Shown: positions 15,484 to 52,226 of the stretch, in pieces
Position numbering within the stretch: the first letter of the stretch is position 1
Layout of the letters: each line of letters starts with the position of its first letter
Source of the DNA: Myxococcota bacterium
GTDB taxonomy: Bacteria > Myxococcota > XYA12-FULL-58-9 > JABJBS01
Reading direction: 5' to 3'
NCBI GenBank assembly: GCA_036339465.1
Contig: JAYZAY010000067.1
Location: forward strand, 1-64,000
DNA: 64,000 nt
Program-made: the position numbers and the translations under genes
The notes under the pieces: model-generated
What the model was told of the DNA's origin: nothing
What the model saw: only the letters and a program-made list of their open reading frames with translations
Database searches by the model: none

Positions 15484-15492
15484 GGCTCACAC

Positions 15493-29563: not shown

Positions 29564-30127
29564 ATGCTTAATACCAGTGACTTCCGCAATGGCCTCAAGA
29601 TTGAGTACCAGGGTGAACCTTACATTATTGTTGAGTTTCAGCACGTAAAGCCCGGAAAGGGCAATGCTTTTACACGAACCAAAATTAAGAATCTCCTCAG
29701 CGGGCGGGTCCTAGACCCCACCTTCAAATCCGGGGAAAAAGTTGGAAAACCCGACATCGAAGAAAAAGATATGCAGTATCTGTATCGAGAGGGCGAACAC
29801 TACGTCTGCATGGACAACACCACCTATGAGCAGGTCGTCGTCGATCAGGAAGCAGTTGGTGATCAAGCAACCTGGCTGAAAGAAAACGACCCGGTTTCCG
29901 TGCTTTTCTGGAACGGAAGTCCCATCACGGTTGAAGTGGAAAAACATGTGGTTCTTCAAATCACACACTGCGAACCCGGAGTTCGGGGCGATACAGCAAC
30001 TGGTGCTAGCAAACCTGCCACCCTAGAGACCGGGGCTGTAGTTCAAGTTCCTATTTTCATTAATGAAGGTGAAAATATTAAGGTCGATACCCGAACCGGT
30101 TCCTACCTAGAACGCGTCAACGATTGA
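29564..30127 (+). CDS. efp: Elongation factor P
   Basis: HVKPGKGNAF, PGVRGDT, KPATLETG; GAGGAG upstream. Confidence 0.98.
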   Translation: MLNTSDFRNGLKIEYQGEPYIIVEFQHVKPGKGNAFTRTKIKNLLSGRVLDPTFKSGEKVGKPDIEEKDMQYLYREGEHYVCMDNTTYEQVVVDQEAVGDQATWLKENDPVSVLFWNGSPITVEVEKHVVLQITHCEPGVRGDTATGASKPATLETGAVVQVPIFINEGENIKVDTRTGSYLERVND

Positions 30128-30258
30128 TGCTCCTACCATAAAAACGGCAATTTTCCCGCCCTGGTACGAACCTACTACGCGTAAAACCAAAAAAGATTCC
30201 CGTAAAATCTTCGAGATCAGTGGTTTGCTTTATCCATACTTTTCAGTACTCTGGATCC

Positions 30259-31197
30259 ATGGGCAAGAGTCCGCTTGAGCAAAAGCCGGGGCACATTACT
30301 TTACCGAATACCGCCGCCCCCCCAGCCGTTTCCACCGCCGAAGCGATGGTTTGCGACACAGGCAATGTTGGAGCCATAGACAGTGGGGACGGTATCAAAT
30401 TGGATTTGCTCGGCCTCGAAGGCCTCGACGTTCAGCTAGACGACACCGATGAAACAGAGGAACCCGCAGATATCGCAGCCTATGATCTAGGAGAAGTGGA
30501 TTTCTTATCGAAACAAGAACTCTACCAAGAAGCACTCAATTTGGCACTCCACTCGGAAGACAAACATCCCGAAAATCCTGAGCTCACCCGACGTATTACT
30601 CAGACCAACCAGTCCATCGAACCAAACCCTGCTCCAAATCTCAGCCCTGAGATCACGCCGATTCAAGCATCTCAGGTGAACTTTGAAGAAGTCCTTTCAG
30701 CTCAGGCAGCCAAGTTGTTTTCTCCGTTGGCAACAGGAGAACTTCCCCCCTTGCTGGTTGCCAGTGAATTTGAAGACCTTAGACAATATTCTCCCGCCGA
30801 CATTCCCGCAGGAGATTACCGAAGCCACTACGATCTTGGCATTGCTTACCAAGAAATGGGCATGTTTAATGAAGCCATTGACGAATTTGAGCTCGCCTCT
30901 ACTTCCACCAGCTTGAGAATCGCAACCCTAATAACCATGGGACAGTGCCTCATACAATTAGATCGAACTGGGGAAGCAGTAGCGCGATTTCATCAAGCGT
31001 TGCAAACCCCGGGATTACTTCCAGAGCAACAATCGCCCATCCACTACGAATTAGGGGAGGCTTATGCCAGATTAGAAGCCTGGGAAGATGCCTACAAATA
31101 TTTCAAACGGGTAGAGGAAGTGCTGGGCAACTTTCGAAAGACCCATCATTGGCTTGCCAAAATTCAGCCGAAAGAAACTGAGTTGGCCACGGAATGA
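30259..31197 (+). CDS. TPR protein resembling the C-terminal TPR block of myxobacterial SgmX
   Basis: Acidic disordered N-half, then HYDLGIAYQEMG...AIDEF and further TPRs (HYELGEAY). Confidence 0.7.
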   Translation: MGKSPLEQKPGHITLPNTAAPPAVSTAEAMVCDTGNVGAIDSGDGIKLDLLGLEGLDVQLDDTDETEEPADIAAYDLGEVDFLSKQELYQEALNLALHSEDKHPENPELTRRITQTNQSIEPNPAPNLSPEITPIQASQVNFEEVLSAQAAKLFSPLATGELPPLLVASEFEDLRQYSPADIPAGDYRSHYDLGIAYQEMGMFNEAIDEFELASTSTSLRIATLITMGQCLIQLDRTGEAVARFHQALQTPGLLPEQQSPIHYELGEAYARLEAWEDAYKYFKRVEEVLGNFRKTHHWLAKIQPKETELATE

Positions 31198-31208
31198 AGG
31201 TGGTTACC

Positions 31209-31955
31209 TCATAGATTGGAAACACGCGCCAACCAATCGATCATCCAATCCTTTTCCCGCCACACCAACAATACCTCCACCGAATCTCCCGCCAACAAAT
31301 AGTTTGCCACCAAATTTTGCCGAGTTTTTGGGGAATTATTTAGGCCCGGCCCTGGAAAGCTCACCCGAAAAGTGCCCACTTTTTTACCTTTAAACTTAGG
31401 CGCAAGTGACAAACTTAAAACATTCAATTCCAGCTCAAGCGCCACATAGGGAAAAGCCCCTCGTCGTACGGAGCGAACCGTCGCCCGCGATAAATCCTGC
31501 TCCCGCGGTCGAGCTAATTTGGCAAAAGAGACCGTCTTTCCCACCCGAATTGACCCACCAGATTCTGACCCAGTATTGGCCGCTGCCCCAAACCCCAACC
31601 TCGAAAGCATTGTCAGGGGATCCTCCCCCGCTCGAATCATCTCTAAGTTCACGAGACGCTTCAATAAATCGCTAATCCTCACCCCTCCGATGGTCCATGT
31701 ATTTCCCTTTTGCCGTAAATAAAATTCCGATTTATCGTATTGGTCTTGAAGAACCTGAAACGTGCTTTTGGCATCGAATTCATCACTGATCACAAAGACC
31801 AATTCCTTACCCTTAATGGAAAACGATTGCACTGCCCCCGCTTGATACCCACCATCACTCAGGCGAATCAAAACGGTATCTTCCCCATAGGCTTGGGGGA
31901 GACCCAACATGAAGACTAAGAGCATAAAAAGAGAACGCACAAAAATACGAAACAC
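31209..31955 (-). CDS. Hypothetical exported protein
   Basis: Signal peptide ending QAYG; start trimmed from 32054 to avoid overlap with the divergent gene. Confidence 0.65.
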   Translation of the reverse strand: MFRIFVRSLFMLLVFMLGLPQAYGEDTVLIRLSDGGYQAGAVQSFSIKGKELVFVISDEFDAKSTFQVLQDQYDKSEFYLRQKGNTWTIGGVRISDLLKRLVNLEMIRAGEDPLTMLSRLGFGAAANTGSESGGSIRVGKTVSFAKLARPREQDLSRATVRSVRRGAFPYVALELELNVLSLSLAPKFKGKKVGTFRVSFPGPGLNNSPKTRQNLVANYLLAGDSVEVLLVWREKDWMIDWLARVSNL

Positions 31956-32190
31956 TGGACCCCCAATTTTCCGACCAACCTCCAATATACAGATACTGGT
32001 GGCCAAAACCGCTCCTAGCATTAAAGACGGGATAATTAGTACATGCGTTCCCAAAACTAAACAAGTTCATCGCACCCTGGGCCAAGCCTTTCACCGCCCA
32101 ATTAAACACGGCAAAGAAGATCTGATTGTTGCGATTCCCGCGATTTCGATGTCTATACACATAGGCTTCCGACAGAGAAACAACCAAAAC

Positions 32191-35100
32191 ATGTCCATCA
32201 CAATTGAGAACGCTAAACCAAAAAAACGATATCGACGCATTTTCTATGCCGCCCTACTGCTCGAACTCCTCTTACAAAGCCTGCTCCATGGTGGTGTCGC
32301 AATCGATGGACTTTATGACCAATTTCGCCTCCGATTAGCGGCAGAAGGAATTAGAGTCGGCGATGTCCAGTGGGATCTCACAAACTATTTGACCATTTCA
32401 GATCTTGAATTCAAAAAAGACAACTCCAACCAGAACCTCCACACCATTATACCCAAAATGGAAATCCGCTGGACCCTCTCGAGTCTCTTAGCCGAGAATC
32501 CCACCATAGAGAGTATCTCCCTGGATTCTCCCACCCTTCGCTTTATCCAAACAAACACCACTACTAACTTCAACCCCCCGACCACCGACGCACTTCATCC
32601 CCAATCAGTGCTAGAAACATTGGCCCTTCCCCTTCAACAGTTACGTCAACTCAAAAAACTCCCAGTAACCTTTGCAATTAAGCAGCTCTCTCTTCGCAAT
32701 CTGACCGTCGAAGCCAAAGCCAAAGCGGCTACTTTCACATTAAACTCCGTGGGGGTCGAATCATCTATTCGCATAACCGACCAAGAGAAATTGTTGGACC
32801 TCCGAATCTTGCCCACAGGGGACGCCACTGAATCCAAAACCCCCACCATGAGTCTCAAAACCCGCGATGGTTTATTGACCATCAAAGCCCTGCCGCATCT
32901 AATGTACCGACATAATATCGCCACCGAATTCGTCCAGATATCCCAAAAACTGGAGGGACAAGTAGCTTACCAAAATGGCGCCAATGTCATTTTCAAAACA
33001 AGCATTGATTCTACAATAAATTACAAAGACAAACTGTCTTTGAAAATCTACCCCAACTTTCAGCTTGGAAACGACTGGATAAATTTTGACGCAAAAGTCG
33101 AAACAGACATAACACCACTACAAATCAAAATTCGAAACCTAGAAATGAGTGCAAAGGCAAACTTAAATCCAGTCATCGAGACTTATCTTCCGAACGCTGG
33201 GCACAAAATGACCGGTCGCGCTCACCTCTCCGTTCAAGGCTCGGGGCACCTCTCACCACTTCTGAAGCCTAGGGCCATAAACCTTGATTTAGCGCTGAAG
33301 TCACCCCAAATCCAGATTGAAGATCCGGAGAAGACTGTACAAGTCAGCAACATTGATTTTGGGATCCACTTTAAAGAAAACCATCTTCAATCGAAACTCA
33401 TGGGCAACCTTGATCGCATCAAAACGCCCGATTTCGAAATCGGCGAAACACAATTTACGACCACCCTAAACCAACATTTTTCTGTTCTTCCCTCGAATAT
33501 CAAAGATTTCCACCCCAACGTAGAAACATCCCTAAGAATAAAACACATACGAACTCAAGACCTTCTCATTCAGAAACTCAATATCGCTCAAAGAGGTTTG
33601 CTTTGGCCCCAAGACACCACCGCCCCCTGGGTACTCACACATCCCCTCAACCATCACATCCAAGTATCCGCTGAAAAAATAGAGAATCCAAAAGCCACAA
33701 TCGGCCCCCTTTTCACCGAAACAAAAATAGAAGGCAAAAAAGGTGGCCAAAAAATCGACATTACTCTAAGCCATCCCCTCACTCATATCCGTACGAAATT
33801 CCTACAAGAGGACCCTCTCAATTTAACATCCGAGATGCGCGCGAGCATTCTCCCTGAGAAGATCTCGGTTACACTACAACTTCACGAACAAACCCTCGTG
33901 GTCAATTCTCGCCTGAATCTCGATATCGCCCACCGAAACTTCAAGCCACACACCATTGGCTCTATGAAGTTTGAATCAACCATGGATAACCTGAGCCTAG
34001 CCGCCTCACATTTTGTTCCCCCCGAAAATGGAATCATTCAAAGCGGCTCTTTAGCTATCCATATGCAACAAAAACATCCCCTAAAACTACAAGCCATCGA
34101 AGCATGGGTCGACAAATCCCCCCCCAATCAAACCACAGAAAAGATCCTTCACGGCACCTCCCTATTACGCGAACTCAGCCGATACTTTACCCTCAACCTT
34201 ACAAGCGACAACCTTGATATAGACCATCCACAAGGTAAAATCGAAGCTCTCACCTTTCGCACCTCCTTCGAAAACGCCACCCTCAAAACGGCGCTCAGCT
34301 TAACCGACATCGAAGTAAAAAAGGTAACCACGACCACCCACAAGCTCAACGCTCTAAGCCTACACTGTGACCTACGCCTCTCACCTTCCAACATTAAACC
34401 AAGTATCACTATCCAAATTGGGAATATAAAAGACCAAGCAAAAAAAGACGACCTCGGTTCTCTCGTGCTCCATTCCGGCTTCACATGGTTCGTCGGGCAA
34501 TTCCTAAACATAGACAGATTTCAACTCGAGCTTCCTGAAATCGAAGCGATGATATCCAGCAAAGGAAAAATTCTGAAGCCCCTGAAAAAGATAGAATCTC
34601 TCCAACATGGAAGGCAAATGGCTGTGCTCCCCATAGCCGATCTGGAATATTTCCTCAGTTACCGCCCTAGAGCATCCCTAAGCTATCTATCAGAACTCGA
34701 ACAATTCCGCGGAGCTCTTGAGCTTCAAGGTTCTCTATTCACCCAAGACCAAGACTTCTTCACAGAAGCCACACTCACCTTCTCTCACCTACATGCTTCG
34801 AGAACCGACATGGACCTAAAAAACCTCCATGGCACCCTTCCGGTTAAGCTCGCTTTTACCCTCGATGCAGCCCAGGGGGCTGTGCCCATCTTTGAATCTG
34901 AAAAAATGACATTATTCATCCCCAACCACACCAACAAGCAAACGAAAAGTCATATTTCCCCCAATAGTCTTTTCACTTCCAACCACCTAAACTCCCTCTC
35001 CGTTGACCACCTCAAGCTCGGCAAACTTGAAGCGAAAAATGGTTCTCTCGTGGCATTGCTCACTTCAAATGGCCTTCAGGTTCCCCAGGCCCGAGTCAGT

Positions 35101-35640
35101 CTACTCGGAGGCGATATCTGGGGGCATTTCAGTACAATCATTCAGTCCCCAGACCTCCTTGAAATCAATCTTGGGGTCCAACTCTCTGGCATTGACGCCA
35201 GTTATTTCAAAACCTTAAATCTCATTCCGGGACCAGAGTCTGCATTGAACGGCAATATGCAAATGAAACTAAGCTTGGGAAGCCACTCTAGAAATCTTGA
35301 GGCAGACTTCAACGTAACCCATATTGGCAGAAAAACCTTAGACCGCTTCTTACAAACCCTTGACCCCGAAAACAAAGACGAGAAAATCCAAAAGACCCGA
35401 AATTACCTGAGCTATCTCAGACTCAACTCCTTAAGCGCATGGATCCGCCACGAACAACTCAATATGGATTTGGATTATGATTCACTCATAGGCATCCCCA
35501 AAACGGCATTAAGCTTTAAACCAGTCCCAAACAAACTCTTGAGGCGCTACGATATTTCGGAGAATATACTCGACCAAGTTCTCCAACCAAAAGTCAATGC
35601 GTATATTGCACCACTATTCGGATGGAAAAATGAATCCTAA
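32191..35640 (+). CDS. Large AsmA-like / YdbH-like beta-strand protein
   Basis: Basic N-terminus plus single TM, then ~1100 aa of amphipathic beta strands; late LLGGDIWG motif; followed by a YdbL-like gene. Confidence 0.65.
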   Translation: MSITIENAKPKKRYRRIFYAALLLELLLQSLLHGGVAIDGLYDQFRLRLAAEGIRVGDVQWDLTNYLTISDLEFKKDNSNQNLHTIIPKMEIRWTLSSLLAENPTIESISLDSPTLRFIQTNTTTNFNPPTTDALHPQSVLETLALPLQQLRQLKKLPVTFAIKQLSLRNLTVEAKAKAATFTLNSVGVESSIRITDQEKLLDLRILPTGDATESKTPTMSLKTRDGLLTIKALPHLMYRHNIATEFVQISQKLEGQVAYQNGANVIFKTSIDSTINYKDKLSLKIYPNFQLGNDWINFDAKVETDITPLQIKIRNLEMSAKANLNPVIETYLPNAGHKMTGRAHLSVQGSGHLSPLLKPRAINLDLALKSPQIQIEDPEKTVQVSNIDFGIHFKENHLQSKLMGNLDRIKTPDFEIGETQFTTTLNQHFSVLPSNIKDFHPNVETSLRIKHIRTQDLLIQKLNIAQRGLLWPQDTTAPWVLTHPLNHHIQVSAEKIENPKATIGPLFTETKIEGKKGGQKIDITLSHPLTHIRTKFLQEDPLNLTSEMRASILPEKISVTLQLHEQTLVVNSRLNLDIAHRNFKPHTIGSMKFESTMDNLSLAASHFVPPENGIIQSGSLAIHMQQKHPLKLQAIEAWVDKSPPNQTTEKILHGTSLLRELSRYFTLNLTSDNLDIDHPQGKIEALTFRTSFENATLKTALSLTDIEVKKVTTTTHKLNALSLHCDLRLSPSNIKPSITIQIGNIKDQAKKDDLGSLVLHSGFTWFVGQFLNIDRFQLELPEIEAMISSKGKILKPLKKIESLQHGRQMAVLPIADLEYFLSYRPRASLSYLSELEQFRGALELQGSLFTQDQDFFTEATLTFSHLHASRTDMDLKNLHGTLPVKLAFTLDAAQGAVPIFESEKMTLFIPNHTNKQTKSHISPNSLFTSNHLNSLSVDHLKLGKLEAKNGSLVALLTSNGLQVPQARVSLLGGDIWGHFSTIIQSPDLLEINLGVQLSGIDASYFKTLNLIPGPESALNGNMQMKLSLGSHSRNLEADFNVTHIGRKTLDRFLQTLDPENKDEKIQKTRNYLSYLRLNSLSAWIRHEQLNMDLDYDSLIGIPKTALSFKPVPNKLLRRYDISENILDQVLQPKVNAYIAPLFGWKNES

Positions 35641-36217
35641 ATACACAATCCTAAGTCTTTTTCTACTCTCTTGCAGCTGTGTCACCATCCAAACAGTCAA
35701 CATTGGACAAAAAACATCTCTCGAGCGCCAACTTATGGGCGACTTTCAAAAACTCAATGAAGAAGAATATTCTGCCATCAGTGTTCGAAGCAAGATAGCC
35801 AAAAAAATGCGAAAGCAATTCGACACGAAATTCCGATTACTACGGGCCCGCCAGAGGCATCTATTTAACCTCGACGACCTAAATCGTTTCCTCCTTGAAG
35901 ACTGTTTAAGAGAGAAGCATGGCTGGCAGTTGGTCACCCATCACTGCGACCTCGCTGAAAAAGAGGCCGGTGCAAAAGAACTCATAGATAAACTCATTCG
36001 AGAAGAAAACACCGATCGAAACGAAATTTTTCTCTTTTTCACCCAGCGCTACAATCTAAACAGTCGCGTCGAGCTCGCCTCTCTAAAAGATGCACTCCAG
36101 AAACTCTACCTCCAGTCCTCTCCTGAGACAACGTGGTTCCAGCCCAAAGAAAACGGGGCCTGGAGACAAAGACAACAATCTCAAAAACACCCCAAACCGT
36201 TGGAAAACAAAACATGA
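35630..36217 (+). CDS. YnbE/YdbL (DUF1318)-like lipoprotein
   Basis: Lipobox LLSC; EENTDR and WFQxxxNGAW motifs resembling YdbL. Confidence 0.7.
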   Translation: MNPKYTILSLFLLSCSCVTIQTVNIGQKTSLERQLMGDFQKLNEEEYSAISVRSKIAKKMRKQFDTKFRLLRARQRHLFNLDDLNRFLLEDCLREKHGWQLVTHHCDLAEKEAGAKELIDKLIREENTDRNEIFLFFTQRYNLNSRVELASLKDALQKLYLQSSPETTWFQPKENGAWRQRQQSQKHPKPLENKT

Positions 36218-39200
36218 AGTGCAACGGTTCTGCTCACTCTCTCTTGAGCATCATACTGGCCCTCTGCGCATTCACTGGATGCAAAGACCGATTGCGCCAC
36301 CCCATTCATTTAGCACCGCCACAAAAGGATGAAAGCATCCTAAAGCACCCCCAACCTCTCCTAGAAGAATTTGGGAATCAATTTCACCCAAACGCCCATC
36401 CCACCACCCAAGATATCGTCTTTGTTTCAGACCAAAGAGGTAACCAAGACATCTATTTCTATGAGGCCCAAAAACAAACCATATCACGCCTCACCCAATC
36501 GACCGCCGATGACTTCATGCCAAGTATAAGTCCCGACGGAAACCGAATCGCTTGGGTCAGTCGCTCTGAAGATGCCAAAGGCGACATTTGGGTCATGGAT
36601 ACCAATGGCAACAACCCCACTAAAATCACAAGTGCTTCCACCAGAGACGCCTCACCTAGTTGGCTGACCAACAACCTCCTAGTCTTCGAAACTCAAAAAG
36701 GCCTAAAATCAACCGATGACACCACCGTCATGCTTTATGACTTAGCAACCCTTAAAGCATCCATCCTAAGCAATAACAGTTTCCACCCCCAGGCACAGGC
36801 ACAATCCAAGCAGGCATTATTCCTCCAAAAAAAACCGGATACAAATCACCTAGAGCTGTGCCTCTATTCCCATACAAACAAGAGAAGACGCATTTTGGGA
36901 GAAGTCCCACAACACTCCACTTCCCCCTTTTTTTTCGAAACCTCTCCTGGATCTCCAATCGCCTATGTCGGCGCCACTGTCTTTAGTTCAGACACCAACA
37001 ACGATCACAAAGTGAACACCGATGATCTGCCATCCATTTATCGTTTCACACTAAAAGAAAACAAGCTCGGAATTCCCACATTAGGACACCCCGAACCCCT
37101 AACACTTCCAACCCAAGGACTCCGAAAAGTAACAATAAGAGACACACATCTCCTCTTTTCCGTTTTTAACGGCCAAAATCTCGACATCTACCAACTACCC
37201 ATCACGGGGATTAAGTCCCCTACTGCAACCTCAACCACCCTTCTAGAGCTTTATCATCAATCGTCCGATGTTCACATACGCACCTTTATTCTGAGAAATC
37301 TCATCATAGAGCGAACCACTCAACAAACAGATGCATACCGAGAACTCGCGTGGAGCCTAGCCCAACAAGGACTCTACCTTGCAGCCAAAGAGGAAATCCA
37401 GGCCGCAATTAAACAAGTCCCGGCAACTGACCAAGACTTATTAGAACTCGCAAAAATAGACCTTAGTCTAGAGCAAGAGAAGTCGATTTCTTCTAAGACC
37501 GATGAATCCAGTCAGCGCCAAAAAGAGCATAAGCGAATGACCTTGAGCAGAGCGATCCTCGCACGTAATCAAGATTCCCCAAGAGTCACTTGCGCTGCAA
37601 AACTGGTCATAGCGAGACTTTATCATCACCAAAAAATGTTTGGAGAAACATGGGACGAGCTTCACACCCTTAGAAAAGAGAGCAAATGCTCAGACTTGCA
37701 AAGGGCGCGGGCTACAGTCCATGCCCTCGATGTCTTATTCGAAATGGGCCAAGAGATCGCCAGGTCGACACTTCTAACTGAATTAGAAAAAACCACAGGA
37801 ACTGGAGTTGATAAAGCAATCCAAGGGGAATTCAAAAAATGGGTCGACCGTTTTCTAGACAGTCATTCTGTCTTAGAGCAACTTGATTTTCTAGCTGACA
37901 GTCTGAATCACTATTTTAAGAAAGGTGATTTGCGCGCTACCCTGCTCTATCGTCGGTCGCTTATTCTCGAGGACATCAACGACCACCCACGTGCACTAAA
38001 AGACCTGGATGAAATCATAAAAATAACCAACGACAGAGAGCTCTTTTCTCGGGCTGCTATGAGACGCTTGAAACTTCACGATACAGCCAATCAAGACAAG
38101 GACCAAACCAAGGAACTCCTACGAATAATTCGAGATCCACGTCTTCTATTGGAACAACGCGGAAAGATGCTTCAGGCCATCGACAAGATCATAGGCTCGA
38201 AAGCACTAAAACTCGAACGTATTGGAAAACCCCTTGAGGCAGTTCGAGTTTATCGCTCGCTTCTCAAGGCCAACCCCCAAGATTCGAAGACCCTTCGAAG
38301 AATTCTCACATTAAGCCATACACTTGGAAAAGGGCTTCAATACACCTGGAAATCCTTGTCGCCATCGACTCTGTCCCAAGGAGTCTACCACTATGGCCAA
38401 GCCCTCATGGACTCCTTTGGGAAATTACCAAAACTCGATGGCATCGAAAAGAATATTCGAATTGCACTCGAACTCAATCCTCGAAATTTTTCCGCGCGGC
38501 TACTGCTTGGCTGGGTCTACGAGAAACGGGAAACACAAAGCCCCAATAAAGGCTGGCTCGAAAAAGCAATCGATATATACGAAACACTTCTCGAGAATGT
38601 ATCTGAAGCCAAGGCGCCCTTTATCTACGCCGCCGTCCACCAAAATCTCGGCATGGCATTTCACAGACTTGGAAAACTAGATAGGGCCTTCAAGTTTTGG
38701 CTAAAGCGTTATCAAACAGAGATTCCCTTCGACGGCCCCGAACAAAATTTGGGTTTCCTATTTACGCTAGCTCAGACCTCTCTTTCCACCGGCGAGCTTG
38801 ACGTTGGCTTGGAAATATCAAGAACGATCTTTAGAAAATCATGGTCAATCAATTCAGCCTCCTACATTCATCGAGCCGCCCTACTACAAGCCTCTCTCTA
38901 TTATGTGCAAACAGACTATGAAGCCGCTCGTTATTGGTATCGCTTTCTAGGAAATATGCTGTCGGTAAATCCTCCAATCATTGTCCTACGGGGACTTGCA
39001 CTCACAGAACAAATGCTCGGAAATTACATGGAGTCAATGCAATATTGGCGTCAACTCTATGACCGAATCGCCGAACGAAAATCCGACAAGAAAGACCCCT
39101 TGGATTCTTTTTTCGTGGTCCTCCAACCAGCGAACCCTGCAAATATCACCGCCGCTCCCTTCGGGTTTCGATCCACACACGAAAAAGCGAATGCACTTGA

Positions 39201-42200
39201 GGGCTTGTTCAGGGTGAGCAATGCCACCGATAAACAGTTAAATATTCTCAAGGAACGTCAGGCCATACTCGAGAAGATGCTTAGGGATTCACCACTGCCC
39301 GCAACGTTTATTCCCGAATTGAGCCAGACACTCGAAGCCATCTACAAAACCCTAAAAACATCAAAACAGCATCTTTCCCTTAGAACGTCCGTCGAAAAAA
39401 CACTAAAAATGGCCATCAACCTACGGGTATTTGGAAGCATCATCCAATTAACACAACTTTATCTCGATGGTTTTGCTCTCGCCGCTCCGCCCATCATTCC
39501 TCCCTGGATCAGAGCCGGGCTCGATTTATTACCCAACGAGATTCCGACCATATACCAAGATGAGTTAAAGAGACTCAAAATAGAAATAGCAAGTTTAAAT
39601 TCTGCCACCACACTCGTTCTCGCTCATGCTGAAGCGAAGTCCCCCCTTGCAATCAAATCAGGTCTATTGAAAGCCGATCTCTCTGCGATCGATAAAACCC
39701 TCACTCTCGCCGGTACCGCGGATCTCTCGGAATTATGCTGGCAAACTCCAGAAACCGAAGAAACGTTAGAAACTTGGGGTAAAGCACTCGCTCAATACGA
39801 AGCAACCTATTTATGCTCAGAGCTAGAAGATAAGGGTTACCTAAATCAAGCCTGGTCTCGGTTTAGGATGAAGAGACATTCTACACTTGGTCCGAAGGCT
39901 ATGCTTTTGATGGAGGAGGTACTAGACCACGCCTTTGCCCATCAAGACGCCAACAGGATCTGGGAGGTCATTGAAAAGAGAACACTGATTGAACTTTACC
40001 CCCTCAAATTGGGAAAATCCTTTCCCATAAACCACCATGCCCTCGACAGCACCTTCCTAAAAGGTCTCGCCCAAGATGCGCCAAAACAAGAGCTACTCGA
40101 CCGACAAAAGCTCGCTGCCTACATTCCCAAGGGAAGCGCGCTGTTGCAATCTATCCAGATAAAAGGACTGCATTACTTTGTCATCTCCACTTCAAACGCC
40201 ATTGAGCAAATGAAATTATCAAATCCATCTTCCGTGGCTGAAAAAAGGATCTTCATCCAGAAACTTTCCAGATGGATTTCAGAGCAAAAAGTCAAACATC
40301 TCTTCTTTGGTGCCACACTCCACCAGCAACTTGGGCAGGAATTCATCCACAAAGCGCTTCGCAGTGCGACGCCCAAATTACGACAATTCAACCAGCTTTC
40401 CTTAACCCATCTGGCCTGGGCAGAGGCACTCTCTCCTTCTGGGATCCGCCGCCAAAAGAAAAATCCACCAAATCAGGAAAGCGCTAAAATCAATGCCGCG
40501 CTTGTTCAAGGCCTCTTGATGCGTAAGCATGGGTTCACTCCTCCCCACCTCGGGAAAACCCTGACGGACCCCAACCTTTATCAGCGTGGCTCTCCACTCA
40601 TTCTACTGGCCTCCCAACTCAGCGCCAGCTCCAGCAATGACCTCAACGCTAAAGCTCAGATGTTTTTGCATTGCATTCATCGGGGAATCCCCACCCTAGC
40701 GTTCCTCCCAACGCCCCCACAGACAATTGAGGGCATGGAACTAAACAGTGAACTCCTCAGAGAACTCGACAGGGTTGCCCTCGGTTCCCACAATACTGCA
40801 GACGGTATTTATTTCGGGCGCCCCTTAGCAGACAGCGCTACCCTATTCCGAGAAAGCCTAACCCGCTTTCTCGCTTCCTTTCGCCAGGCGGCGGTAGCGG
40901 CTCTTCCGCTCAAGAAAACCCGTGCAAAATTGGATGAGAGTACACTTGAACATGCGGAAATCCTTCTTCGCAAGGTTTTAATTACATTGGATTTTCTTTC
41001 CTACCACCCAATCTTTGCGGGACTTCGGAAAGATTTTGCCACAACCCAAGCATCACTCCCAAAAACAATCAGAAAGTGGGGCGCCATGCTCTTAAGCGGT
41101 GGAGAAGCTATCAGGCAGATGCTCATGGTCCCACTGAGCAAAGCCTTATCCCTAAATGGGAGACAGCGAGAAGCCATCGAGATTTTCGAGCGGATAGCGC
41201 AAAGTAGTCCGAAGAAATCATTGAGACTGCAGGCCCTGTTGAATCAGGCCAAGCGCCACATGGAGAGCCATTCCTACCCCCAAGCCGCCGAAACATTGAA
41301 GCGATGTATTAAAATAGGTAAGGGGCACGAATTGGATGCAGCTTACCCTTGCTACGTCACCCTGCCCAATGCGCTAAAGAAATCCGGCCGTATCAGTGAA
41401 GCGGGCCGGGTTTACAGTGATTTACTCAAGCTCTTAGGGACAAATGACCCTAGGCGTATTCGAATTGTCAGAGAATTTGCGCTTTTGGTAGAACAACCCC
41501 TAAACGCCTACGACAAGGCACTCAAACTCATTCGTGAGGCGATTTCAATGTCTGGAGAAATTGAAATCGATGGCGCTCTCAAAACGAACTTGCTCATAGA
41601 CGAGGCACGGCTTCTTCGAAAGATGGGCATGTTTCAATTGGCGCTCAAGCGGATCGAGCGCGCCAAAGTCCAGGCTCTGCATATGCCTATCGCACTCGCG
41701 AATGTCTGGTTGGAGCATGCCAGGATCCATTGGTACCAAGGTCGCTACGCCGACGCTTTGAAATCACAAAAGCAAGCCCTTCTTATCGCTGACCAATTGG
41801 GAAGTTCTTTTCTACAAATCCAGTGTTTTAGTTTAGAGGGACTCATTTTACTCAACCAAGGAGAGCTCGAAGCCGCGAAACAGCGGATCGAAGCTGCACT
41901 TCTATTGGCCAGAAAAACCAATCGCAAACAAGAAGAGGCCATTCAACTCAACAATCTTGGTACCGTATACCGAGCTCTCGGTGAACTTGAGGACTCAGTT
42001 GTCGCGTTTCGAAAAGCTGAAACCATTGATAGAAAATATCGAGACCATTATGGCCTCGCCTACGATCTCCGCAATTTGGCCACAACCAAAATAAAGCAGA
42101 ACAAACCTAGAGAGGCTAAAAAACTATTCCTTCAAGCCATCGAAATAAGCGAGAAGCTTAAGGACCCGTACAACCTGGCTCAATCGCTTTTGAGTCTGGC

Positions 42201-43656
42201 TTCACTTCCCAATCTAAAAAAAGGAAAAATACTCGCCTGCCTCAACAAAGCCACTCAATTATCAAGTAAATACGGGCTGCGTAGTATCCTATGGAAATCT
42301 CTCTATGGGTTAGCCCAACTCTACGAACAAAAGGAAGCCATTCCAAAAGCACGGCACTTGTACAACCTATCATCCAAGGTCGCTTCACAAACCCAGGAAC
42401 AATCCACAGCCGGGCAAATAGAATTAACACCTGAAGCCCTTCGAAAGTCCGCCATTGATTTTATGCTTAAACATGGTCACGTCGCGGATGCCCTCGACCT
42501 GGAGGACGGATTTCGCCAAACCAAAATAGACCTCACCCTAAAGGCGCTCGGCAAAGAAGTTCAACAGCAATCCCAAGGTGCTTGGGCGGCCCTCCATAAA
42601 CAGATTCAGCAAGCGATTTCCAAGGAAACCGAAAAGCCCTCTGAATCGACAAACCCTGGCCACTGGCTGACTCACCTACAAACGAACTTGGCTCCCACCT
42701 CAGCAATCTTCTATTTGATTGGTACGGAGCACTATTTACACCGCATCTTGGTGACCCGGGAAGACCTGACTGCGACGTCGCTCCCAATGGCACCAAACCA
42801 GAAACATATCCTTCGCGCTCTCGCCACCAACGTGCACTGGAATTTGCCTCCGAAAAAGTACCACAAGATTGCTTCGGATATGATTTTCAAAGATCTCCTA
42901 ACTCAGGTTGGAGACAAAACTCATTTGCACCTCGTTGTTGAGGGGTGGTGGCTCAACATTCCTTTTGCTGCGCTACACATAGCCCCGGAAAAACCGCTCA
43001 TCGAAGGCTTCGAGCTCTCTTTTTCCAGACGACTCTCAAAAAACCCACAGGCCATGTCCTCCAAAAGACATAGCCAAGAGAAGCAACCCAGAATTCTCGC
43101 CGCTGCCCCGTCCAAAGATCTACCTTACGCCAAACTGGAGGTTGAAAGCCTAGATAAGGCAGTTCGCCTCTATGACTCCACCACCCTAGCGCAGGAAATT
43201 CGGGCGGGCACCTACGACATCGTTCATCTAACTGGGCACAGTGATCTCAACACCAAAATTTCCCCAGAAACCGGTTTGTGGTTCACGACAGACAGCGAGC
43301 GAATTGATTATTTAAACCTAGGAGACTGGACCCAGGCTACCAGTCTTCCAAGTCTCGTTATATTAAACTCGTGTCATAGCGGTGAATTCTCGAAAAAAAG
43401 TCAAAATGCGTCACTTGCACAAGCCCTCCGAGCCATTGGGGTGCAATCTGTCATCGCGAATACCAACGGAGTGTCGGATTTTGATGCAGCCATTCTAATG
43501 AAACATTTTCACAGATACCTACCAACAGATGGCGCCCGCAAGGCGTTGCAAAAAGCAATGCTCCGACTAAGGCAGTTAGAGCCATCTGAATTGGCATGGG
43601 CGCAAACAAAGATTTTTCAGGGCCTTATCCCTAGCAAAATCATGCGCGACGAGTAA
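36214..43656 (+). CDS. Giant lipoprotein: TolB/PD40 beta-propeller, TPR arrays, C-terminal CHAT protease
   Basis: Lipobox FTGC; FVSDQRGNQDIY and PSISPDGNRIAW; NNLGTVY TPRs; CHAT motifs IPFAAL, LPYAKLEV, VHLTGHS, VILNSCHSG. Confidence 0.88.
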   Translation: MKCNGSAHSLLSIILALCAFTGCKDRLRHPIHLAPPQKDESILKHPQPLLEEFGNQFHPNAHPTTQDIVFVSDQRGNQDIYFYEAQKQTISRLTQSTADDFMPSISPDGNRIAWVSRSEDAKGDIWVMDTNGNNPTKITSASTRDASPSWLTNNLLVFETQKGLKSTDDTTVMLYDLATLKASILSNNSFHPQAQAQSKQALFLQKKPDTNHLELCLYSHTNKRRRILGEVPQHSTSPFFFETSPGSPIAYVGATVFSSDTNNDHKVNTDDLPSIYRFTLKENKLGIPTLGHPEPLTLPTQGLRKVTIRDTHLLFSVFNGQNLDIYQLPITGIKSPTATSTTLLELYHQSSDVHIRTFILRNLIIERTTQQTDAYRELAWSLAQQGLYLAAKEEIQAAIKQVPATDQDLLELAKIDLSLEQEKSISSKTDESSQRQKEHKRMTLSRAILARNQDSPRVTCAAKLVIARLYHHQKMFGETWDELHTLRKESKCSDLQRARATVHALDVLFEMGQEIARSTLLTELEKTTGTGVDKAIQGEFKKWVDRFLDSHSVLEQLDFLADSLNHYFKKGDLRATLLYRRSLILEDINDHPRALKDLDEIIKITNDRELFSRAAMRRLKLHDTANQDKDQTKELLRIIRDPRLLLEQRGKMLQAIDKIIGSKALKLERIGKPLEAVRVYRSLLKANPQDSKTLRRILTLSHTLGKGLQYTWKSLSPSTLSQGVYHYGQALMDSFGKLPKLDGIEKNIRIALELNPRNFSARLLLGWVYEKRETQSPNKGWLEKAIDIYETLLENVSEAKAPFIYAAVHQNLGMAFHRLGKLDRAFKFWLKRYQTEIPFDGPEQNLGFLFTLAQTSLSTGELDVGLEISRTIFRKSWSINSASYIHRAALLQASLYYVQTDYEAARYWYRFLGNMLSVNPPIIVLRGLALTEQMLGNYMESMQYWRQLYDRIAERKSDKKDPLDSFFVVLQPANPANITAAPFGFRSTHEKANALEGLFRVSNATDKQLNILKERQAILEKMLRDSPLPATFIPELSQTLEAIYKTLKTSKQHLSLRTSVEKTLKMAINLRVFGSIIQLTQLYLDGFALAAPPIIPPWIRAGLDLLPNEIPTIYQDELKRLKIEIASLNSATTLVLAHAEAKSPLAIKSGLLKADLSAIDKTLTLAGTADLSELCWQTPETEETLETWGKALAQYEATYLCSELEDKGYLNQAWSRFRMKRHSTLGPKAMLLMEEVLDHAFAHQDANRIWEVIEKRTLIELYPLKLGKSFPINHHALDSTFLKGLAQDAPKQELLDRQKLAAYIPKGSALLQSIQIKGLHYFVISTSNAIEQMKLSNPSSVAEKRIFIQKLSRWISEQKVKHLFFGATLHQQLGQEFIHKALRSATPKLRQFNQLSLTHLAWAEALSPSGIRRQKKNPPNQESAKINAALVQGLLMRKHGFTPPHLGKTLTDPNLYQRGSPLILLASQLSASSSNDLNAKAQMFLHCIHRGIPTLAFLPTPPQTIEGMELNSELLRELDRVALGSHNTADGIYFGRPLADSATLFRESLTRFLASFRQAAVAALPLKKTRAKLDESTLEHAEILLRKVLITLDFLSYHPIFAGLRKDFATTQASLPKTIRKWGAMLLSGGEAIRQMLMVPLSKALSLNGRQREAIEIFERIAQSSPKKSLRLQALLNQAKRHMESHSYPQAAETLKRCIKIGKGHELDAAYPCYVTLPNALKKSGRISEAGRVYSDLLKLLGTNDPRRIRIVREFALLVEQPLNAYDKALKLIREAISMSGEIEIDGALKTNLLIDEARLLRKMGMFQLALKRIERAKVQALHMPIALANVWLEHARIHWYQGRYADALKSQKQALLIADQLGSSFLQIQCFSLEGLILLNQGELEAAKQRIEAALLLARKTNRKQEEAIQLNNLGTVYRALGELEDSVVAFRKAETIDRKYRDHYGLAYDLRNLATTKIKQNKPREAKKLFLQAIEISEKLKDPYNLAQSLLSLASLPNLKKGKILACLNKATQLSSKYGLRSILWKSLYGLAQLYEQKEAIPKARHLYNLSSKVASQTQEQSTAGQIELTPEALRKSAIDFMLKHGHVADALDLEDGFRQTKIDLTLKALGKEVQQQSQGAWAALHKQIQQAISKETEKPSESTNPGHWLTHLQTNLAPTSAIFYLIGTEHYLHRILVTREDLTATSLPMAPNQKHILRALATNVHWNLPPKKYHKIASDMIFKDLLTQVGDKTHLHLVVEGWWLNIPFAALHIAPEKPLIEGFELSFSRRLSKNPQAMSSKRHSQEKQPRILAAAPSKDLPYAKLEVESLDKAVRLYDSTTLAQEIRAGTYDIVHLTGHSDLNTKISPETGLWFTTDSERIDYLNLGDWTQATSLPSLVILNSCHSGEFSKKSQNASLAQALRAIGVQSVIANTNGVSDFDAAILMKHFHRYLPTDGARKALQKAMLRLRQLEPSELAWAQTKIFQGLIPSKIMRDE

Positions 43657-44100
43657 AAAGCACTAAAATAGAGTAGAGCTCTAAACGCCCTACGAGTCTT
43701 AAAAAGCTCATAGGCCATTTATCCCAAGCAAGAAGACGGGACCAATTGGCAATTGGCCCAAGGGCACCAAAACCTCACCTCATCTTACTTAAACCGAAAA
43801 TCTCTGCACTTAGGGATGTTTCTATGTCATCACCGCACGCAGCCATCACCAAAGTGCCCCAGGGCCACGCCCAACGCATAGAGGAATCCGAAAGTAAGAA
43901 TATTGTTCATCACAACTTGACTAATACTACGATGACGAATTCGAATAAGTTTTACACCATGGGAACAAACAAGTCGCTAAGCTCACGCCCAAGGGACTCC
44001 CCAAGAAAACCAACCTCATCACTTTGATTCCCCTCCTGTGGAACCCATACCTCCCCCCACCAAATACGGGCTTCAGTTTGCTCATATCATCGCCGCAAAG
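43640..44100 (-). pseudogene. trkH: trkH (Trk K+ uptake membrane subunit) pseudogene; weaker remnants may extend to ~44330
   Basis: Across frameshifts and stops: GMGSTGG/IKVMRL, RLVCSHGVKLIRI...NNILTFGFLY, GFGALGPIANW...KWPMSFLRLVGRLELYSILVLF. Confidence 0.85.
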
Positions 44101-44357
44101 AAAGTTTTTCGAACGCTTTAATTGCGCTCGGTTTCACATAGGCAAAGACGCGTTCATCCGAGAAAATCAGGCTTGAACCATTGGGCATGATAACGTCGCC
44201 ATTTCTCGTGAAAATACGGCCATGACCCTCATAACAACTCAATGGTTAGGGGGGGGGAGTACGGTGTCCTAATCCCGAAGGATCTCTCGGATAGGCCCAG
44301 AACAAAGTTTCTCAAAAATTCTCAAACAATGACCGATGCAGAGGGAAAGGTTGGCGT

Positions 44358-45536
44358 CTAGAAAAAGGCATTCAACCCCGTTAGAGCGCGTCCAATTGCT
44401 AAAGTATGAACTTCGTGGGTGCCTTCATAAGTATAGACACTTTCGATGTTCATCAGGTGCCGAATAACCGGATAAGCGTCGGTAATCCCTATTCCTCCCA
44501 GCATACCACGGGCCATGCTAGCAATCTTTCGGGTACACTCAACATTGTGCCGCTTGTGCATGCTCACTTGAACAGGGGAGAGCTTGCCCTCATCTTTTAG
44601 CCGGCCGAAGTGCAGTGACATCAGCTGAGAATTCACGATCATCGTCGCCATTTCGGCCAGCTTTGCCTGATAGAGCTGGAATTGAGCAATGGGTTTACCA
44701 AACGCGATTCGCTCTTTCCCATAATTCAAAACTGTCTCATAACAGTCCAATGCCGGGCCGGTTACCCCCCATGCAATCCCTTCCCGAGCCTGGGTCAAAC
44801 ACATAAGTGGACTCTTCAAACCGTTAGAATCCGGGAGAATATTCGCCGCAGGGATCCGACAGTCGGTTAAATGAATCTCCCCCGTCGGGGATGCCCTCAA
44901 GGAAAATTTTCCTTCAATATAAGGTGTGTCATAACCTTTCGCTCCGCGTTCAATAACAAAACCTCGAATGCGATTGTCATCATCTAGATCCTTAGCCCAA
45001 ACAACAGCCACATGAGAAATCGGGGAATTCGTAATCCAGCTCTTGATACCATTCAAAACATAGGTATCTCCATCCCGCTTCGCAGTGGTCGTCATAGCGG
45101 CTGGATCCGAACCGGCACCTGGTTCAGTAAGGCCGAAACAACCAATCATTTCTCCACTGGCAAGTTTCGGCAACCATTTATTACGCTGACCATCGTTGCC
45201 AAACGCCAGAATCGGATACATCACCAGAGACCCTTGAACACTGGTCAGCGACCTCAAACCAGAATCGCCACGCTCAAGCTCTTGTAAGACCAAGCCGTAG
45301 GCCACGTTGTTTAAGCCTGCACATCCGTAACCATCAATACTCGCCCCAAAAGCACCTAATTCAGCAATCTCGGGAATCAATTCCATTGGAAAAGTTCCTT
45401 CGCGGTGAGCCGGGGTCAAAGCAGGCAGAAATCGCTCTTTGATCCAGCTGCGAACGGAGTCGCGAATGGCTTTTTCTTCATCGGTAAATAGATGCTCAAT
45501 GGCTAGGAGATCTTCTAGGCTCTGGGGTTTGGACAT
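44358..45536 (-). CDS. gcdH: Glutaryl-CoA dehydrogenase-like acyl-CoA dehydrogenase
   Basis: ELERGDSGLRS, GCFGLTEP, WITNS, YTYEGTHEVH. Confidence 0.88.
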   Translation of the reverse strand: MSKPQSLEDLLAIEHLFTDEEKAIRDSVRSWIKERFLPALTPAHREGTFPMELIPEIAELGAFGASIDGYGCAGLNNVAYGLVLQELERGDSGLRSLTSVQGSLVMYPILAFGNDGQRNKWLPKLASGEMIGCFGLTEPGAGSDPAAMTTTAKRDGDTYVLNGIKSWITNSPISHVAVVWAKDLDDDNRIRGFVIERGAKGYDTPYIEGKFSLRASPTGEIHLTDCRIPAANILPDSNGLKSPLMCLTQAREGIAWGVTGPALDCYETVLNYGKERIAFGKPIAQFQLYQAKLAEMATMIVNSQLMSLHFGRLKDEGKLSPVQVSMHKRHNVECTRKIASMARGMLGGIGITDAYPVIRHLMNIESVYTYEGTHEVHTLAIGRALTGLNAFF

Positions 45537-46278: not shown

Positions 46279-47376
46279 GTGAATACTTTTGAACGATATT
46301 TCGCAAAACAAATCACAAGTCCTCTGCTAAGTGGGCTCGTTTTTTTCTTCATCATCATCCTATTTGGACAAATGGTTCAATTGAGTGATGCGGTAACTGG
46401 ACTCGGCCTGGATCCACAAAGTCTTTTGAATGCAATTCTATTTTCGGCTGCCCCATTGTTGGGAATTCTTCTGCCAATCTCAGCCCTCTTTGCCACCATG
46501 CTCGGGGTATCTAAGCTGGCTGCAGACGGTGAATTACTCGCTTATCAAGCCACAGGAGGCCAACCGAGAAAGCTCCTCAAAATCCCAATCATCTTCAGCC
46601 TCTTGTTGTGTTCAACCTCCTCACTCTTTCTCGTCTATGGGGAGCCCTGGGGGCTTAAAAGCCTGCAGACTTTAATGACCGAAAATGCAACAACCACCAT
46701 TGTCGAGGGCATTCACAGCAAAAAGATGATCGATTGGATTAAAGGCATCACATTTTATGCCGCCGACGAAGATGCAACGGGTTTGACGAGGGTCTTATTG
46801 GTTGAAAATCGCTCCGAAAAAGCCTCATATGTGGTCGCCGCCGAACATGCAGAAATCTCCCCCAGCCCCTTGGATAGCAGTGTGCTTTTCTCCCTTTCAA
46901 ATGGGCAAATTCTTCTCTCAGACCAGGACGACAATCCAAGAAACGTGATCCACTTCGAAAAACTCGATTACCGGCTAGGTGTAAAACAATTGGTGGGAAA
47001 TAGGCTCCATACAGTCACCCATGCCCAAATGATGACCCTGAATGAACTCTGGGAAAACATCCAAAATCCAGAAACAAATGTAAACACAAACGCACTCTAC
47101 ATTGTAACCTTGAATCGAAAATTCGCACTGCCAGTAGCGGCGGTTGTTTTTAGCTTACTTGCATTCGCCATCGGTTTCCGAACATCCAAAGCCCCTCAAG
47201 CTCAAGCGTATATTAACTGTATCTTGATTATCGCTGGCTATTATTACTTAGGTCGCGCTTTGGAACTCTCGGCAAGACGAGGCGATTTCCCCCCCTGGTT
47301 GGCCGCCTGGGTCCCCAACATCCTCGGACTCTTGTGGGGGTGGATACTTCTCTGGCGGCGAGGCTTACTTAGATGA
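46279..47376 (+). CDS. lptF: LPS export permease LptF
   Basis: 3 TM + periplasmic domain + 3 TM; LAADGEL; AAWVPN; paired with the next gene. Confidence 0.85.
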   Translation: MNTFERYFAKQITSPLLSGLVFFFIIILFGQMVQLSDAVTGLGLDPQSLLNAILFSAAPLLGILLPISALFATMLGVSKLAADGELLAYQATGGQPRKLLKIPIIFSLLLCSTSSLFLVYGEPWGLKSLQTLMTENATTTIVEGIHSKKMIDWIKGITFYAADEDATGLTRVLLVENRSEKASYVVAAEHAEISPSPLDSSVLFSLSNGQILLSDQDDNPRNVIHFEKLDYRLGVKQLVGNRLHTVTHAQMMTLNELWENIQNPETNVNTNALYIVTLNRKFALPVAAVVFSLLAFAIGFRTSKAPQAQAYINCILIIAGYYYLGRALELSARRGDFPPWLAAWVPNILGLLWGWILLWRRGLLR

Positions 47377-48464: not shown

Positions 48465-48479
48465 AGGGGCCTTGCCCCT
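48465..48479. terminator. Short hairpin between convergent genes
   Basis: AGGGGC-CTT-GCCCCT; no clear U tract. Confidence 0.3.
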
Positions 48480-48492
48480 CACTCAGCGATCT

Positions 48493-50309: not shown

Positions 50310-50311
50310 TC

Positions 50312-52221: not shown

Positions 52222-52226
52222 ACTTC

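Follow-up and report, generated by a model that had tools for sequence, protein, structure and literature searches.

A gene trio of Myxococcota and Desulfobacterota-labelled genomes joins an AsmA-like protein and a lipid-anchored YdbL-fold protein to a giant CHAT-domain lipoprotein

A stretch of 64,000 nucleotides from a Myxococcota bacterium (GenBank assembly GCA_036339465.1, contig JAYZAY010000067.1, positions 1 to 64,000 of the forward strand; the whole stretch is called the window here) carries three consecutive genes, P1, P2 and P3. They encode an AsmA-like protein with a predicted beta groove, a lipoprotein with a YdbL-type domain and a giant, apparently exported lipoprotein that ends in a CHAT domain (Table 1). 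A first-pass annotation, made from the sequence alone, had described them as a YdbH/YnbE/YdbL-like envelope bridge coupled to an exported protease. The parts can be assigned to folds or families, the CHAT domain has an intact catalytic pair, export signals are predicted and the genes are linked in two phyla. On these grounds we propose that the three proteins work together in the envelope as a module of the AsmA-like intermembrane-bridge type that includes an active exported protease, and we give this reading a probability of roughly 55%.

The open reading frames, their translations and the raw sequence agreed on the bounds of the genes. P1 starts with an ATG at 32191 and ends with a TAA at 35638-35640; the ATG of P2 at 35630 lies inside the end of P1, giving an overlap of 11 bases, and the TGA of P2 at 36215-36217 overlaps the ATG of P3 at 36214-36216 in the sequence ATGA. 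The three plus-strand genes are translationally coupled at this locus, and the overlapping stops and starts read in the first-pass annotation (35630-35640 and 36214-36217) are indeed present. In the public annotation the start of P1 is placed 89 residues further downstream, which gives a protein of 1060 residues that lacks the membrane helix; with the longer start at 32191, P1 can be aligned to the N-termini of its homologues and to the DUF748 model.

P1 appears to be an AsmA-like bridge-type protein with a conserved C-terminal domain of its own and is not a member of the YdbH family. The assignment to the AsmA/DUF748 type was made because its relatives carry AsmA/DUF748 domains and because its beta model resembles bridge-like lipid-transfer proteins. 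In a scan with hmmscan, P1 itself matched no Pfam family at E<=0.1, and a word-based homologue search returned only P1 and one weak match. An exhaustive HMMER search revealed 122 relatives, mostly of 1100-1350 residues, nearly all of which were matched mainly via the last ~200 residues. A sample of 41 of them, all full-length (1029-1361 residues) and spanning the whole range of E-values, was scanned for domains: N-terminal AsmA, DUF748 (PF05359) or YhdP (PF13116) matches were found in 28, with 17 above the curated cut-off for AsmA, but none of the 41 matched the YdbH-like family PF11739. P1 orthologues in related loci also passed the AsmA (PF05170) cut-off, and in a search of the own genome positions 3-174 of DUF748 matched the first ~180 residues of P1 (32197-32739; 24.7 bits, E 9.8e-6, cut-off 50). 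PF11739 is absent from this genome and was above its cut-off in one of 151 genomes of the phylum. In the own genome, which is 92.8% complete, a search for AsmA-like proteins turned up a single further one, a TamB encoded on another contig.

The AlphaFold2 model of P1, built from a 68-row alignment, had a mean predicted local distance difference test score (pLDDT) of 79.3, and DSSP assigned a helix at residues 12-51 and almost exclusively beta structure elsewhere, in agreement with the membrane-anchored, beta-rich protein of ~1150 residues described earlier. A Foldseek search with the model gave ApoB100 (2.6e-7), the LPD-3/BLTP1 complex (3.3e-7, probability 0.99), LptD, the N-terminal domain of Atg2 (probability 1.00) and an N-terminal fragment of Vps13 as top matches in the PDB; the template modelling (TM) scores were low, as expected for long flexible rods. 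These matches are lipid-transfer or lipid-binding beta-sheet proteins, and the predicted model has the elongated, repeating beta-groove (taco) fold that the label of an envelope bridge had presupposed. Like TamB, YhdP and AsmA, P1 has a presumed N-terminal anchor and, in the model, a long groove, and its relatives have an AsmA/DUF748/YhdP-type N-terminal region. Unlike TamB, it has a distinct conserved C-terminal domain and no TamB (DUF490) match, and its partner is a DUF1318 lipoprotein and not a TamA barrel, the TamB of the genome being a separate gene. Compared to E. coli YdbH (879 residues), P1 lies outside PF11739 and is 270 residues longer.

P2 was described in the first-pass annotation as a lipoprotein with YdbL-like motifs. 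The motifs are real, although the copy in the window is below the reach of Pfam: P2 itself had no Pfam match, but 11 of 14 orthologues matched DUF1318 (PF07027), with a best value of 9.5e-9. A profile of P2 compared with E. coli YdbL by hhalign gave a probability of 88.7% (E 2.6e-6) and aligned residues 84-181 with YdbL residues 24-107, which is nearly all of the mature E. coli protein. The AlphaFold2 model of P2 (71 sequences) had a pLDDT of 85.5, with values >90 for residues 60-180, and its one confident match in the PDB was the crystal structure of E. coli YdbL, 28oj (probability 1.00, TM-score 0.72 normalised to the target, root mean square deviation 3.6). The C-terminal half of P2 therefore has the YdbL (DUF1318) fold; the N-terminal half, ~65 residues beyond YdbL, belongs to no known family. 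Within it L31, E32, Q34, G37 and R53 are invariant among the 71 sequences, and in the Geobacter-type proteins this segment is the most conserved part. The lipoprotein calls for P2 and P3 were made by inspection of the sequences. The lipobox Cys of P2 is Cys15, the Cys aligned in orthologues is Cys17, and a Cys in the lipobox region is nearly invariant across the 71 sequences. In the phylum, DUF1318 was found in 31 of 151 genomes with 32 matches, and 29 of these lie in open frames of 188-282 residues, about twice the length of E. coli YdbL, the other three frames (492-630 residues) running on upstream of the gene.

The E. coli YdbH-YnbE-YdbL system (PMC11126948; preprint 10.64898/2026.03.16.712125; PMC13748024) is likewise an operon, in which an AsmA-like protein with a beta groove and an inner-membrane anchor is encoded together with a lipoprotein and a DUF1318 domain. 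According to the preprint (10.64898/2026.03.16.712125), YdbL grips the C-terminal helix of the lipoprotein YnbE via residues that include E60 and R61, and free YdbL is degraded by DegP, a precedent for proteolytic control of YdbL. E60 and R61 align with D129 and R130 of P2, so that the YnbE-binding Glu/Arg pair is kept as Asp/Arg; R130 is invariant and N127 nearly invariant among the 71 sequences. In contrast to E. coli YdbL, a small soluble periplasmic protein with a precursor of 108 residues, P2 is lipid-anchored and has a conserved extra N-terminal half. A YnbE gene was not found here, nor was one found in any of the 151 genomes of the phylum, and E. coli has no counterpart of a third, giant exported component with a caspase-like protease. 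The name YdbH/YnbE/YdbL-like is consequently right in its YdbL part, as judged from fold and hhalign, but not in its YdbH part, for which a PF11739 match is missing, nor in its YnbE part.

P3 matches its earlier description as a lipoprotein of ~2480 residues with PD40 repeats, TPRs and a CHAT domain in all of these features. A lipobox or signal peptide was found in 19 of the 22 P3 frames whose N-termini were inspected, and the other three (loci L028, L067 and L071) start too far upstream. Lipoboxes are present in 15 Myxococcota orthologues, and a plain signal peptide in short P3 and in Geobacter-type P3. The predicted export signal is conserved, which speaks for the real signal peptide assumed before. 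The layout of the protein was derived from an alignment with 12 full-length orthologues and from profile comparison. Its N-terminal propeller (PD40, 1.1e-10 in Pfam) aligns with 20 orthologues, including short forms, and carries an Asp-rich motif of its own, shared only with P3 orthologues. A word-based search with residues 24-400 returned mostly generic PD40 proteins. PD40 beta-propeller repeats in a periplasmic protein are known from TolB of the Tol-Pal system, but the TolB equivalog TIGR02800 reached only 64.5 bits against a cut-off of 343 and covered residues 51-173 only, which is insufficient for a TolB, and the Asp-rich motif is a further difference.

The CHAT domain at the C-terminus was matched with 3.5e-27 and 96 bits against a Pfam cut-off of 24 (101 bits at the same coordinates in the genome search, in which it was the single CHAT gene of the genome). 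The codons of the two expected catalytic residues lie exactly where the first-pass annotation had placed them, His2342 at 43237-43239 and Cys2387 at 43372-43374. In a comparison with solved CHAT proteins both residues fall on the H-G and C-E positions, which we take to be the catalytic ones, and both are kept in 26 of 26 P3 orthologues (21 from Myxococcota and five of five of the Desulfuromonadales type); in one Myxococcota protein the same His motif is two alignment columns off. Since the pair is conserved despite an overall identity of ~20-30%, the alignment argues for an active enzyme. A region in the middle of P3 was related to the C-terminal CHAT profile by hhalign with a probability of 96.3% (E 1.9e-9), and the columns aligned to His and Cys are not conserved in it. 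Helical or TPR-like repeats before a caspase-like CHAT domain with a His/Cys pair, and a catalytically dead CHAT-like domain upstream of the live one, are features that P3 presumably shares with separase, and Csx29 of type III-E CRISPR systems (7x8a, 8d9f-h) has the same arrangement. Unlike these cytoplasmic proteins, P3 has a conserved predicted export signal with a lipobox, is three to four times larger, begins with a PD40 propeller and is encoded with envelope-bridge genes instead of CRISPR or cell-cycle partners.

The linkage of the three genes was examined in related genomes; the named relatives are metagenome-assembled genomes that bear the labels Myxococcota, 'Bdellovibrionales' or Deltaproteobacteria. 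P1 occurs in 23 of 41 related genomes including the own one, namely in 19 of 21 other genomes of the order and in three of 19 from the rest of the phylum; genomes G012 (100% complete) and G010 (65% complete) of the same order had no match. Of 18 related loci, 16 have P1, P2 and P3 in collinear order, and five of these 16 end inside P3 at contig ends; the remaining two loci have P1 and P2 facing each other and no P3 in the vicinity. When the genomes of the phylum were searched with a propeller profile of P3, full-length matches were obtained at 64 places in 60 of 151 genomes, and these fall into two size classes: long forms (~2500-3160 residues) that bear the CHAT domain, and short forms (~1150-1390 residues) with propeller and TPRs but no CHAT. 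Long P3 follows P1-P2 in the order of the window and in one further family, and in four loci of another family it follows P2 alone, with a metallophosphoesterase gene upstream. Short P3 sits in a collinear trio of its own with an AsmA-family protein and a DUF1318 lipoprotein, and both types of trio occur side by side in three genomes of one family (G098, G090, G070).

The paralogous trio was seen in large Myxococcaceae-like genomes and others (loci L066, L067, L071, L074, L082, L086-L089, L091 and L092), with an AsmA-family protein of 1190-1580 residues, a DUF1318 lipoprotein that lacks the motif S-V-R discussed below and a PD40-TPR protein of 1150-1390 residues without CHAT; it is probably present in Myxococcus model strains as well.

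A pattern scan beyond the phylum yielded 39 loci, which come from records of Geobacter, Desulfuromonadaceae, Pelobacteraceae and the like. P2 was detected in every one of these loci, in two of them as a partial match or in two pieces; a P3-like gene followed it each time, and the C-terminus of P1 was detected in 36. In each of the five genomes of this Desulfuromonadales type that were checked, the P3 frame (2454-2853 residues) ends in CHAT. Five of five further genomes (with labels such as Desulfatiglandales, Desulfobacteraceae and Desulfobulbaceae) encode a CHAT-bearing P3 too, adjoining P2 in four. In all, P2 of the type found in the window is present in 74 loci, including those of the isolates Geobacter sp. 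OR-1, seven Geomonas species and Citrifermentans bremense R1, and a CHAT-bearing P3 was confirmed in the cultured Geobacter sp. OR-1. The trio or the P2-P3 pair is conserved in two phyla, Myxococcota and Desulfobacterota-labelled genomes. The linkage of the CHAT gene to the other two is thereby confirmed, as is the occurrence of the trio in a second phylum.

A tripeptide of P2 co-varies with the type of P3 beside it. Ser-Val-Arg (residues 51-53) lies between the N-terminal segment and the YdbL domain. Arg53 is kept in 31 of 31 window-type P2 from Myxococcota loci, mostly as A-S-V-R, and S-V-R in 73 of 73 aligned P2 from Desulfobacterota-labelled records. The 11 P2 proteins encoded beside a short, CHAT-less P3 have no S-V-R; two of them do not align there, and in the remaining nine the column holds Arg (2), Lys (2), Gln (3) or Pro (2). 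Cleavage after Arg is frequent among caspase-clan enzymes, for example separase and metacaspases. Because the motif is restricted to CHAT-associated P2 and because of this preference for Arg, S-V-R is a candidate cleavage site of P3.

From these parts a mechanism can be drawn, in which lipid transport, contact between P1, P2 and P3, and the substrate are what we infer. P1, held by one inner-membrane helix, would span the periplasm with a long beta groove for lipids, and P2 would probably cap its outer-membrane end. The lipid-anchored N-terminal half of P2 may stand in the place of YnbE as groove cap, and the YdbL-type domain, which keeps the YnbE-gripping residues, may control its own anchor segment, so that P2 would likely do the work of both YnbE and YdbL with a single chain, as its layout suggests. 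P3 would dock near P1 and P2 via its propeller, the only part common with the protease-less type, and would carry a separase-like pair of a dead CHAT-like and a live CHAT domain. The protease could be attached to the bridge, assemble it or gate it, as gene linkage and the co-varying motif, the two lines that bear on this point, would allow. Most likely, CHAT would process or remove one of the components of the bridge, and the best candidate is P2, at S-V-R: a cut after S-V-R, between anchor segment and YdbL domain, would determine the moment at which the cap can join P1, as a built-in counterpart of the control by DegP and YdbL proposed for E. coli. That P3 cleaves P2 at exactly this place is a tentative model that we hold to be rather improbable as it stands, and we put no more trust in its fuller version, a proteolytically licensed lipid bridge in which P2 is a self-inhibited YnbE-YdbL fusion whose chaperone domain restrains the lipid-anchored capping segment, P3 is docked at the bridge by its propeller and gated by its TPR solenoid, and the cut lets the cap stack on the end of P1. 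If true, envelope lipid flow would be switched by a caspase-type cut, and no bridge-like lipid-transfer protein is known to be controlled in this way. A complex prediction with residues 835-1149 of P1, 15-185 of P2 and 24-400 of P3 as partner gave a score of 0.06 (mark 0.32), which has no bearing either way on binding.

Several observations weigh against a bridge module served by a protease. As for the bridge, a profile of P1 showed no relation to E. coli YdbH in hhalign (probability 1.9%). None of 14 P2 orthologues matched YnbE (Lipoprotein_19, PF13617) at E<=10, and in hhalign of P2 against YnbE the signal peptide alone aligned, with a probability of 2%. In the monomer model the N-terminal segment of P2 is coil and helix with a pLDDT of 57-74. 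This segment shows no sequence relation to YnbE, and the two resemble each other in position and layout only, with a lipidated Cys that is followed by a short stretch prone to form a strand and then by an acidic helix. As for the linkage, the complete genome G012 of the own order matched neither P1 nor the full P3 propeller, and no AsmA-like gene adjoins P2-P3 in the family with the metallophosphoesterase gene. In 3 of 3 loci of one Myxococcota family, the CHAT-bearing P3 stands away from P1 and P2, directly after a chemoreceptor gene with HAMP and MCP domains. The paralogous module, with a short P3, works without the protease. Because of this CHAT-less trio and of the CHAT gene beside the chemoreceptor gene, the protease is an add-on to a conserved third component; the first-pass view of the protease as part of the bridge module thus stands as far as linkage goes (16 of 18 loci), but not as an obligatory association. 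A serious caveat is that the association of S-V-R with CHAT separates two old paralogue families and may be one evolutionary event. No lineage was found that has S-V-R or CHAT but not both, the 10 Desulfobacterota-labelled genomes that were checked having both, and because no lineage separates motif from CHAT, an independent contrast is missing. Finally, the predicted lipobox of P3 is followed by Lys at +2 in the window and by Ala, Ser, Gly or Arg in orthologues. In M. xanthus, Lys at +2 accompanies inner-membrane lipoproteins (8 of 12; PMC3222651), and P3 may be attached to the inner or to another membrane.

As the main competitor of the bridge module, P3 could act on its own as a sensor-protease of the periplasm, with a part in signalling, quality control or conflict; its substrates would then not be bridge components, and it would stand beside P1 and P2 only through shared envelope location or co-regulation. 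TPR-CHAT proteins are typically ligand-gated proteases, and the order of TPRs, pseudo-CHAT and CHAT in P3 resembles solved TPR-CHAT proteins; the chemoreceptor-associated loci and a paralogous P1-P2 module that needs no protease would also be expected. We regard this as unlikely, if still the alternative to be taken most seriously, since the adjacency of P2 and P3, usually with an overlap of stop and start, persists at 20-30% identity in two phyla, since the propeller is common to the short P3, which is always found beside a P1-P2 pair, and since S-V-R of P2 tracks the CHAT type. Moreover, a single CHAT gene in the genome is not the variable pattern of a defence island. If the CHAT domain were instead a structural remnant, P3 would be a non-catalytic scaffold whose propeller and solenoid assemble or brace the bridge, as the dead middle domain and the short forms without CHAT could suggest; this has very little probability, the His/Cys pair being kept in all 26 orthologues, from at least five families in two phyla, while the surroundings drifted to ~20-30% identity, and being aligned with the His-Gly and Cys positions of solved CHAT proteins. 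Only slightly more probable, and still improbable, is that P1 and P2 are no phospholipid bridge but handle other cargo or serve adhesion, secretion or motility, their AsmA likeness being one of fold only. P1 does lie outside the YdbH family, and for the E. coli proteins, too, lipid transport is inferred from genetics (PMC8593681, PMC11126948); but DUF1318 is known only as a partner of an AsmA-like bridge, the fold matches of P1 are lipid-transfer or lipid-binding proteins, TamB is the only other AsmA-like protein found in the genome, and lptF/lptG and a PAP2 phosphatase gene lie 3-5 kb downstream. We thus keep to the envelope module of P1, P2 and P3 with the probability given above.

The chemoreceptor genes that precede P3 in the family mentioned above encode proteins of ~860 residues with HAMP and an MCP signalling domain and are located at 13614-16175 (minus strand) in locus L076, 3999-6596 (plus strand) in L077 and 2403-4991 (plus strand) in L080. 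In L076, a gene for a PlsB-type glycerol-3-phosphate acyltransferase (2773-5520) is convergent to P3. A link of P3 to membrane signalling or to phospholipid synthesis is possible.

AsmA-like bridges are the leading candidates for the phospholipid route to the outer membrane and are relatives of the eukaryotic bridge-like lipid-transfer proteins. Their assembly and regulation are largely open; in E. coli only the balance of YdbL and YnbE and DegP are known. The locus described here is a widespread second design of a YdbH-type system in Myxococcota and Desulfobacterota, with the YdbL domain lipid-anchored and no YnbE, and it adds a conserved third subunit that is absent in E. coli. One branch would in addition possess a dedicated exported CHAT protease, whose active site appears intact by alignment. 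CHAT proteases have so far been studied as cytoplasmic enzymes, and a periplasmic one with an adjacent candidate substrate would place the family in a new setting and offer a regulator of envelope lipid transport that can be tested directly. In the literature covered, with most subscription journals outside its scope, neither an operon of DUF1318 and AsmA-like genes with a PD40-TPR-CHAT protein nor a lipid-anchored YdbL or a periplasmic CHAT protease was described. New here is the combination of a YdbH-type bridge system with a fused cap and chaperone, a third subunit and a dedicated caspase-like protease.

Table 1 Features of the P1-P2-P3 locus, with positions in the window
Feature	Position	Strand	Description or basis
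P1	32191..35640	+	inner-membrane-anchored AsmA-like repeating-beta-groove protein, 1149 residues; open reading frame, translation
P1 N-terminal helix (residues 12-51), presumed membrane anchor	32224..32343	+	DSSP on model
P1 C-terminal domain (residues ~930-1149), most conserved part of family	34978..35637	+	homologue matches, pLDDT mostly >90
P2	35630..36217	+	lipoprotein, 195 residues; conserved N-terminal segment and C-terminal YdbL-fold (DUF1318) domain
P2 lipobox L-L-S-C (residues 12-15)	35663..35674	+	read from sequence
P2 N-terminal conserved segment (residues 17-53), S-V-R at its end (35780-35788)	35678..35788	+	71-sequence alignment
P2 YdbL-like domain (residues 84-181)	35879..36172	+	hhalign, Foldseek
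P3	36214..43656	+	exported giant lipoprotein (predicted), 2480 residues; translation, Pfam/NCBIfam scans, orthologue alignments
P3 signal peptide and lipobox F-T-G-C (Cys23), +2 = Lys	36214..36282	+	read from sequence
P3 PD40 beta-propeller (residues ~65-365)	36406..37308	+	PD40 match 92-127, orthologue alignment
P3 helical/TPR-like repeats (residues ~370-1315)	37321..40158	+	TPR_14 373-415, TPR_17 751-786; boundaries approximate
P3 degenerate second CHAT-like domain (residues ~1316-1525), without His/Cys pair	40159..40788	+	hhalign
P3 TPR array (residues ~1640-2070)	41131..42423	+	TPR_12, TPR_2, TPR_8, TPR_16, TPR_10 and TPR_MalT matches
P3 CHAT domain (residues 2222-2457)	42877..43584	+	Pfam CHAT PF12770

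The neighbours of the trio are envelope and housekeeping genes. Upstream are pilMNOPQ, aroK-aroB, aroQ, efp and a gene for a TPR protein, and downstream follow an acyl-CoA dehydrogenase gene on the other strand, lptF/lptG, the PAP2 phosphatase gene, ftsE/ftsX and genes for an M23 and an S41 peptidase. The envelope-biogenesis genes form a cluster at 46279-53348, 3-10 kb downstream, in which lptF, lptG, ftsE, ftsX and the genes for the M23 and S41 (Ctp-type) peptidases are on the same strand as the trio, and the PAP2 phosphatase gene is on the minus strand between lptG and ftsE. Most of the gap between the TPR gene (30220-31197) and P1 is filled by a minus-strand frame of 281 residues (31209-32054), a candidate gene without a Pfam family that overlaps the upstream extension of the open frame of P1. 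A scan of 30100-44500 for promoters and terminators gave counts at or below the shuffled expectation and was uninformative. RNA-library contigs from three studies map on P2 and P3, and three of them, X14 (36039-36797), X18 and X19 (36128-36274), cross the P2/P3 junction; such contigs may stem from DNA carry-over and are no proof of a single transcript, and they give a weak hint that the locus is expressed. Among public DNA sequencing runs, the best matches to 34800-37800 came from several studies of marine or seawater metagenomes (shares 0.90, 0.90 and 0.53), and one of these runs may be the source sample.

Farther from the trio, the pilQ secretin gene (20449-25611) is unusually long, encoding 1720 residues with at least four AMIN domains before the secretin core. 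In its first half the G+C content dips to 0.41-0.42 and the A-over-T skew rises to 0.37-0.41, which points to an N-terminal region that is repetitive or of low complexity. Shikimate kinase and 3-dehydroquinate synthase (aroK-aroB) are fused in one frame of 588 residues at 25645-27411. Two tRNA-Ser genes with the anticodons TGA and GCT are located back to back, 71 bases apart, at 8545-8632 on the minus strand and 8704-8795 on the plus strand.

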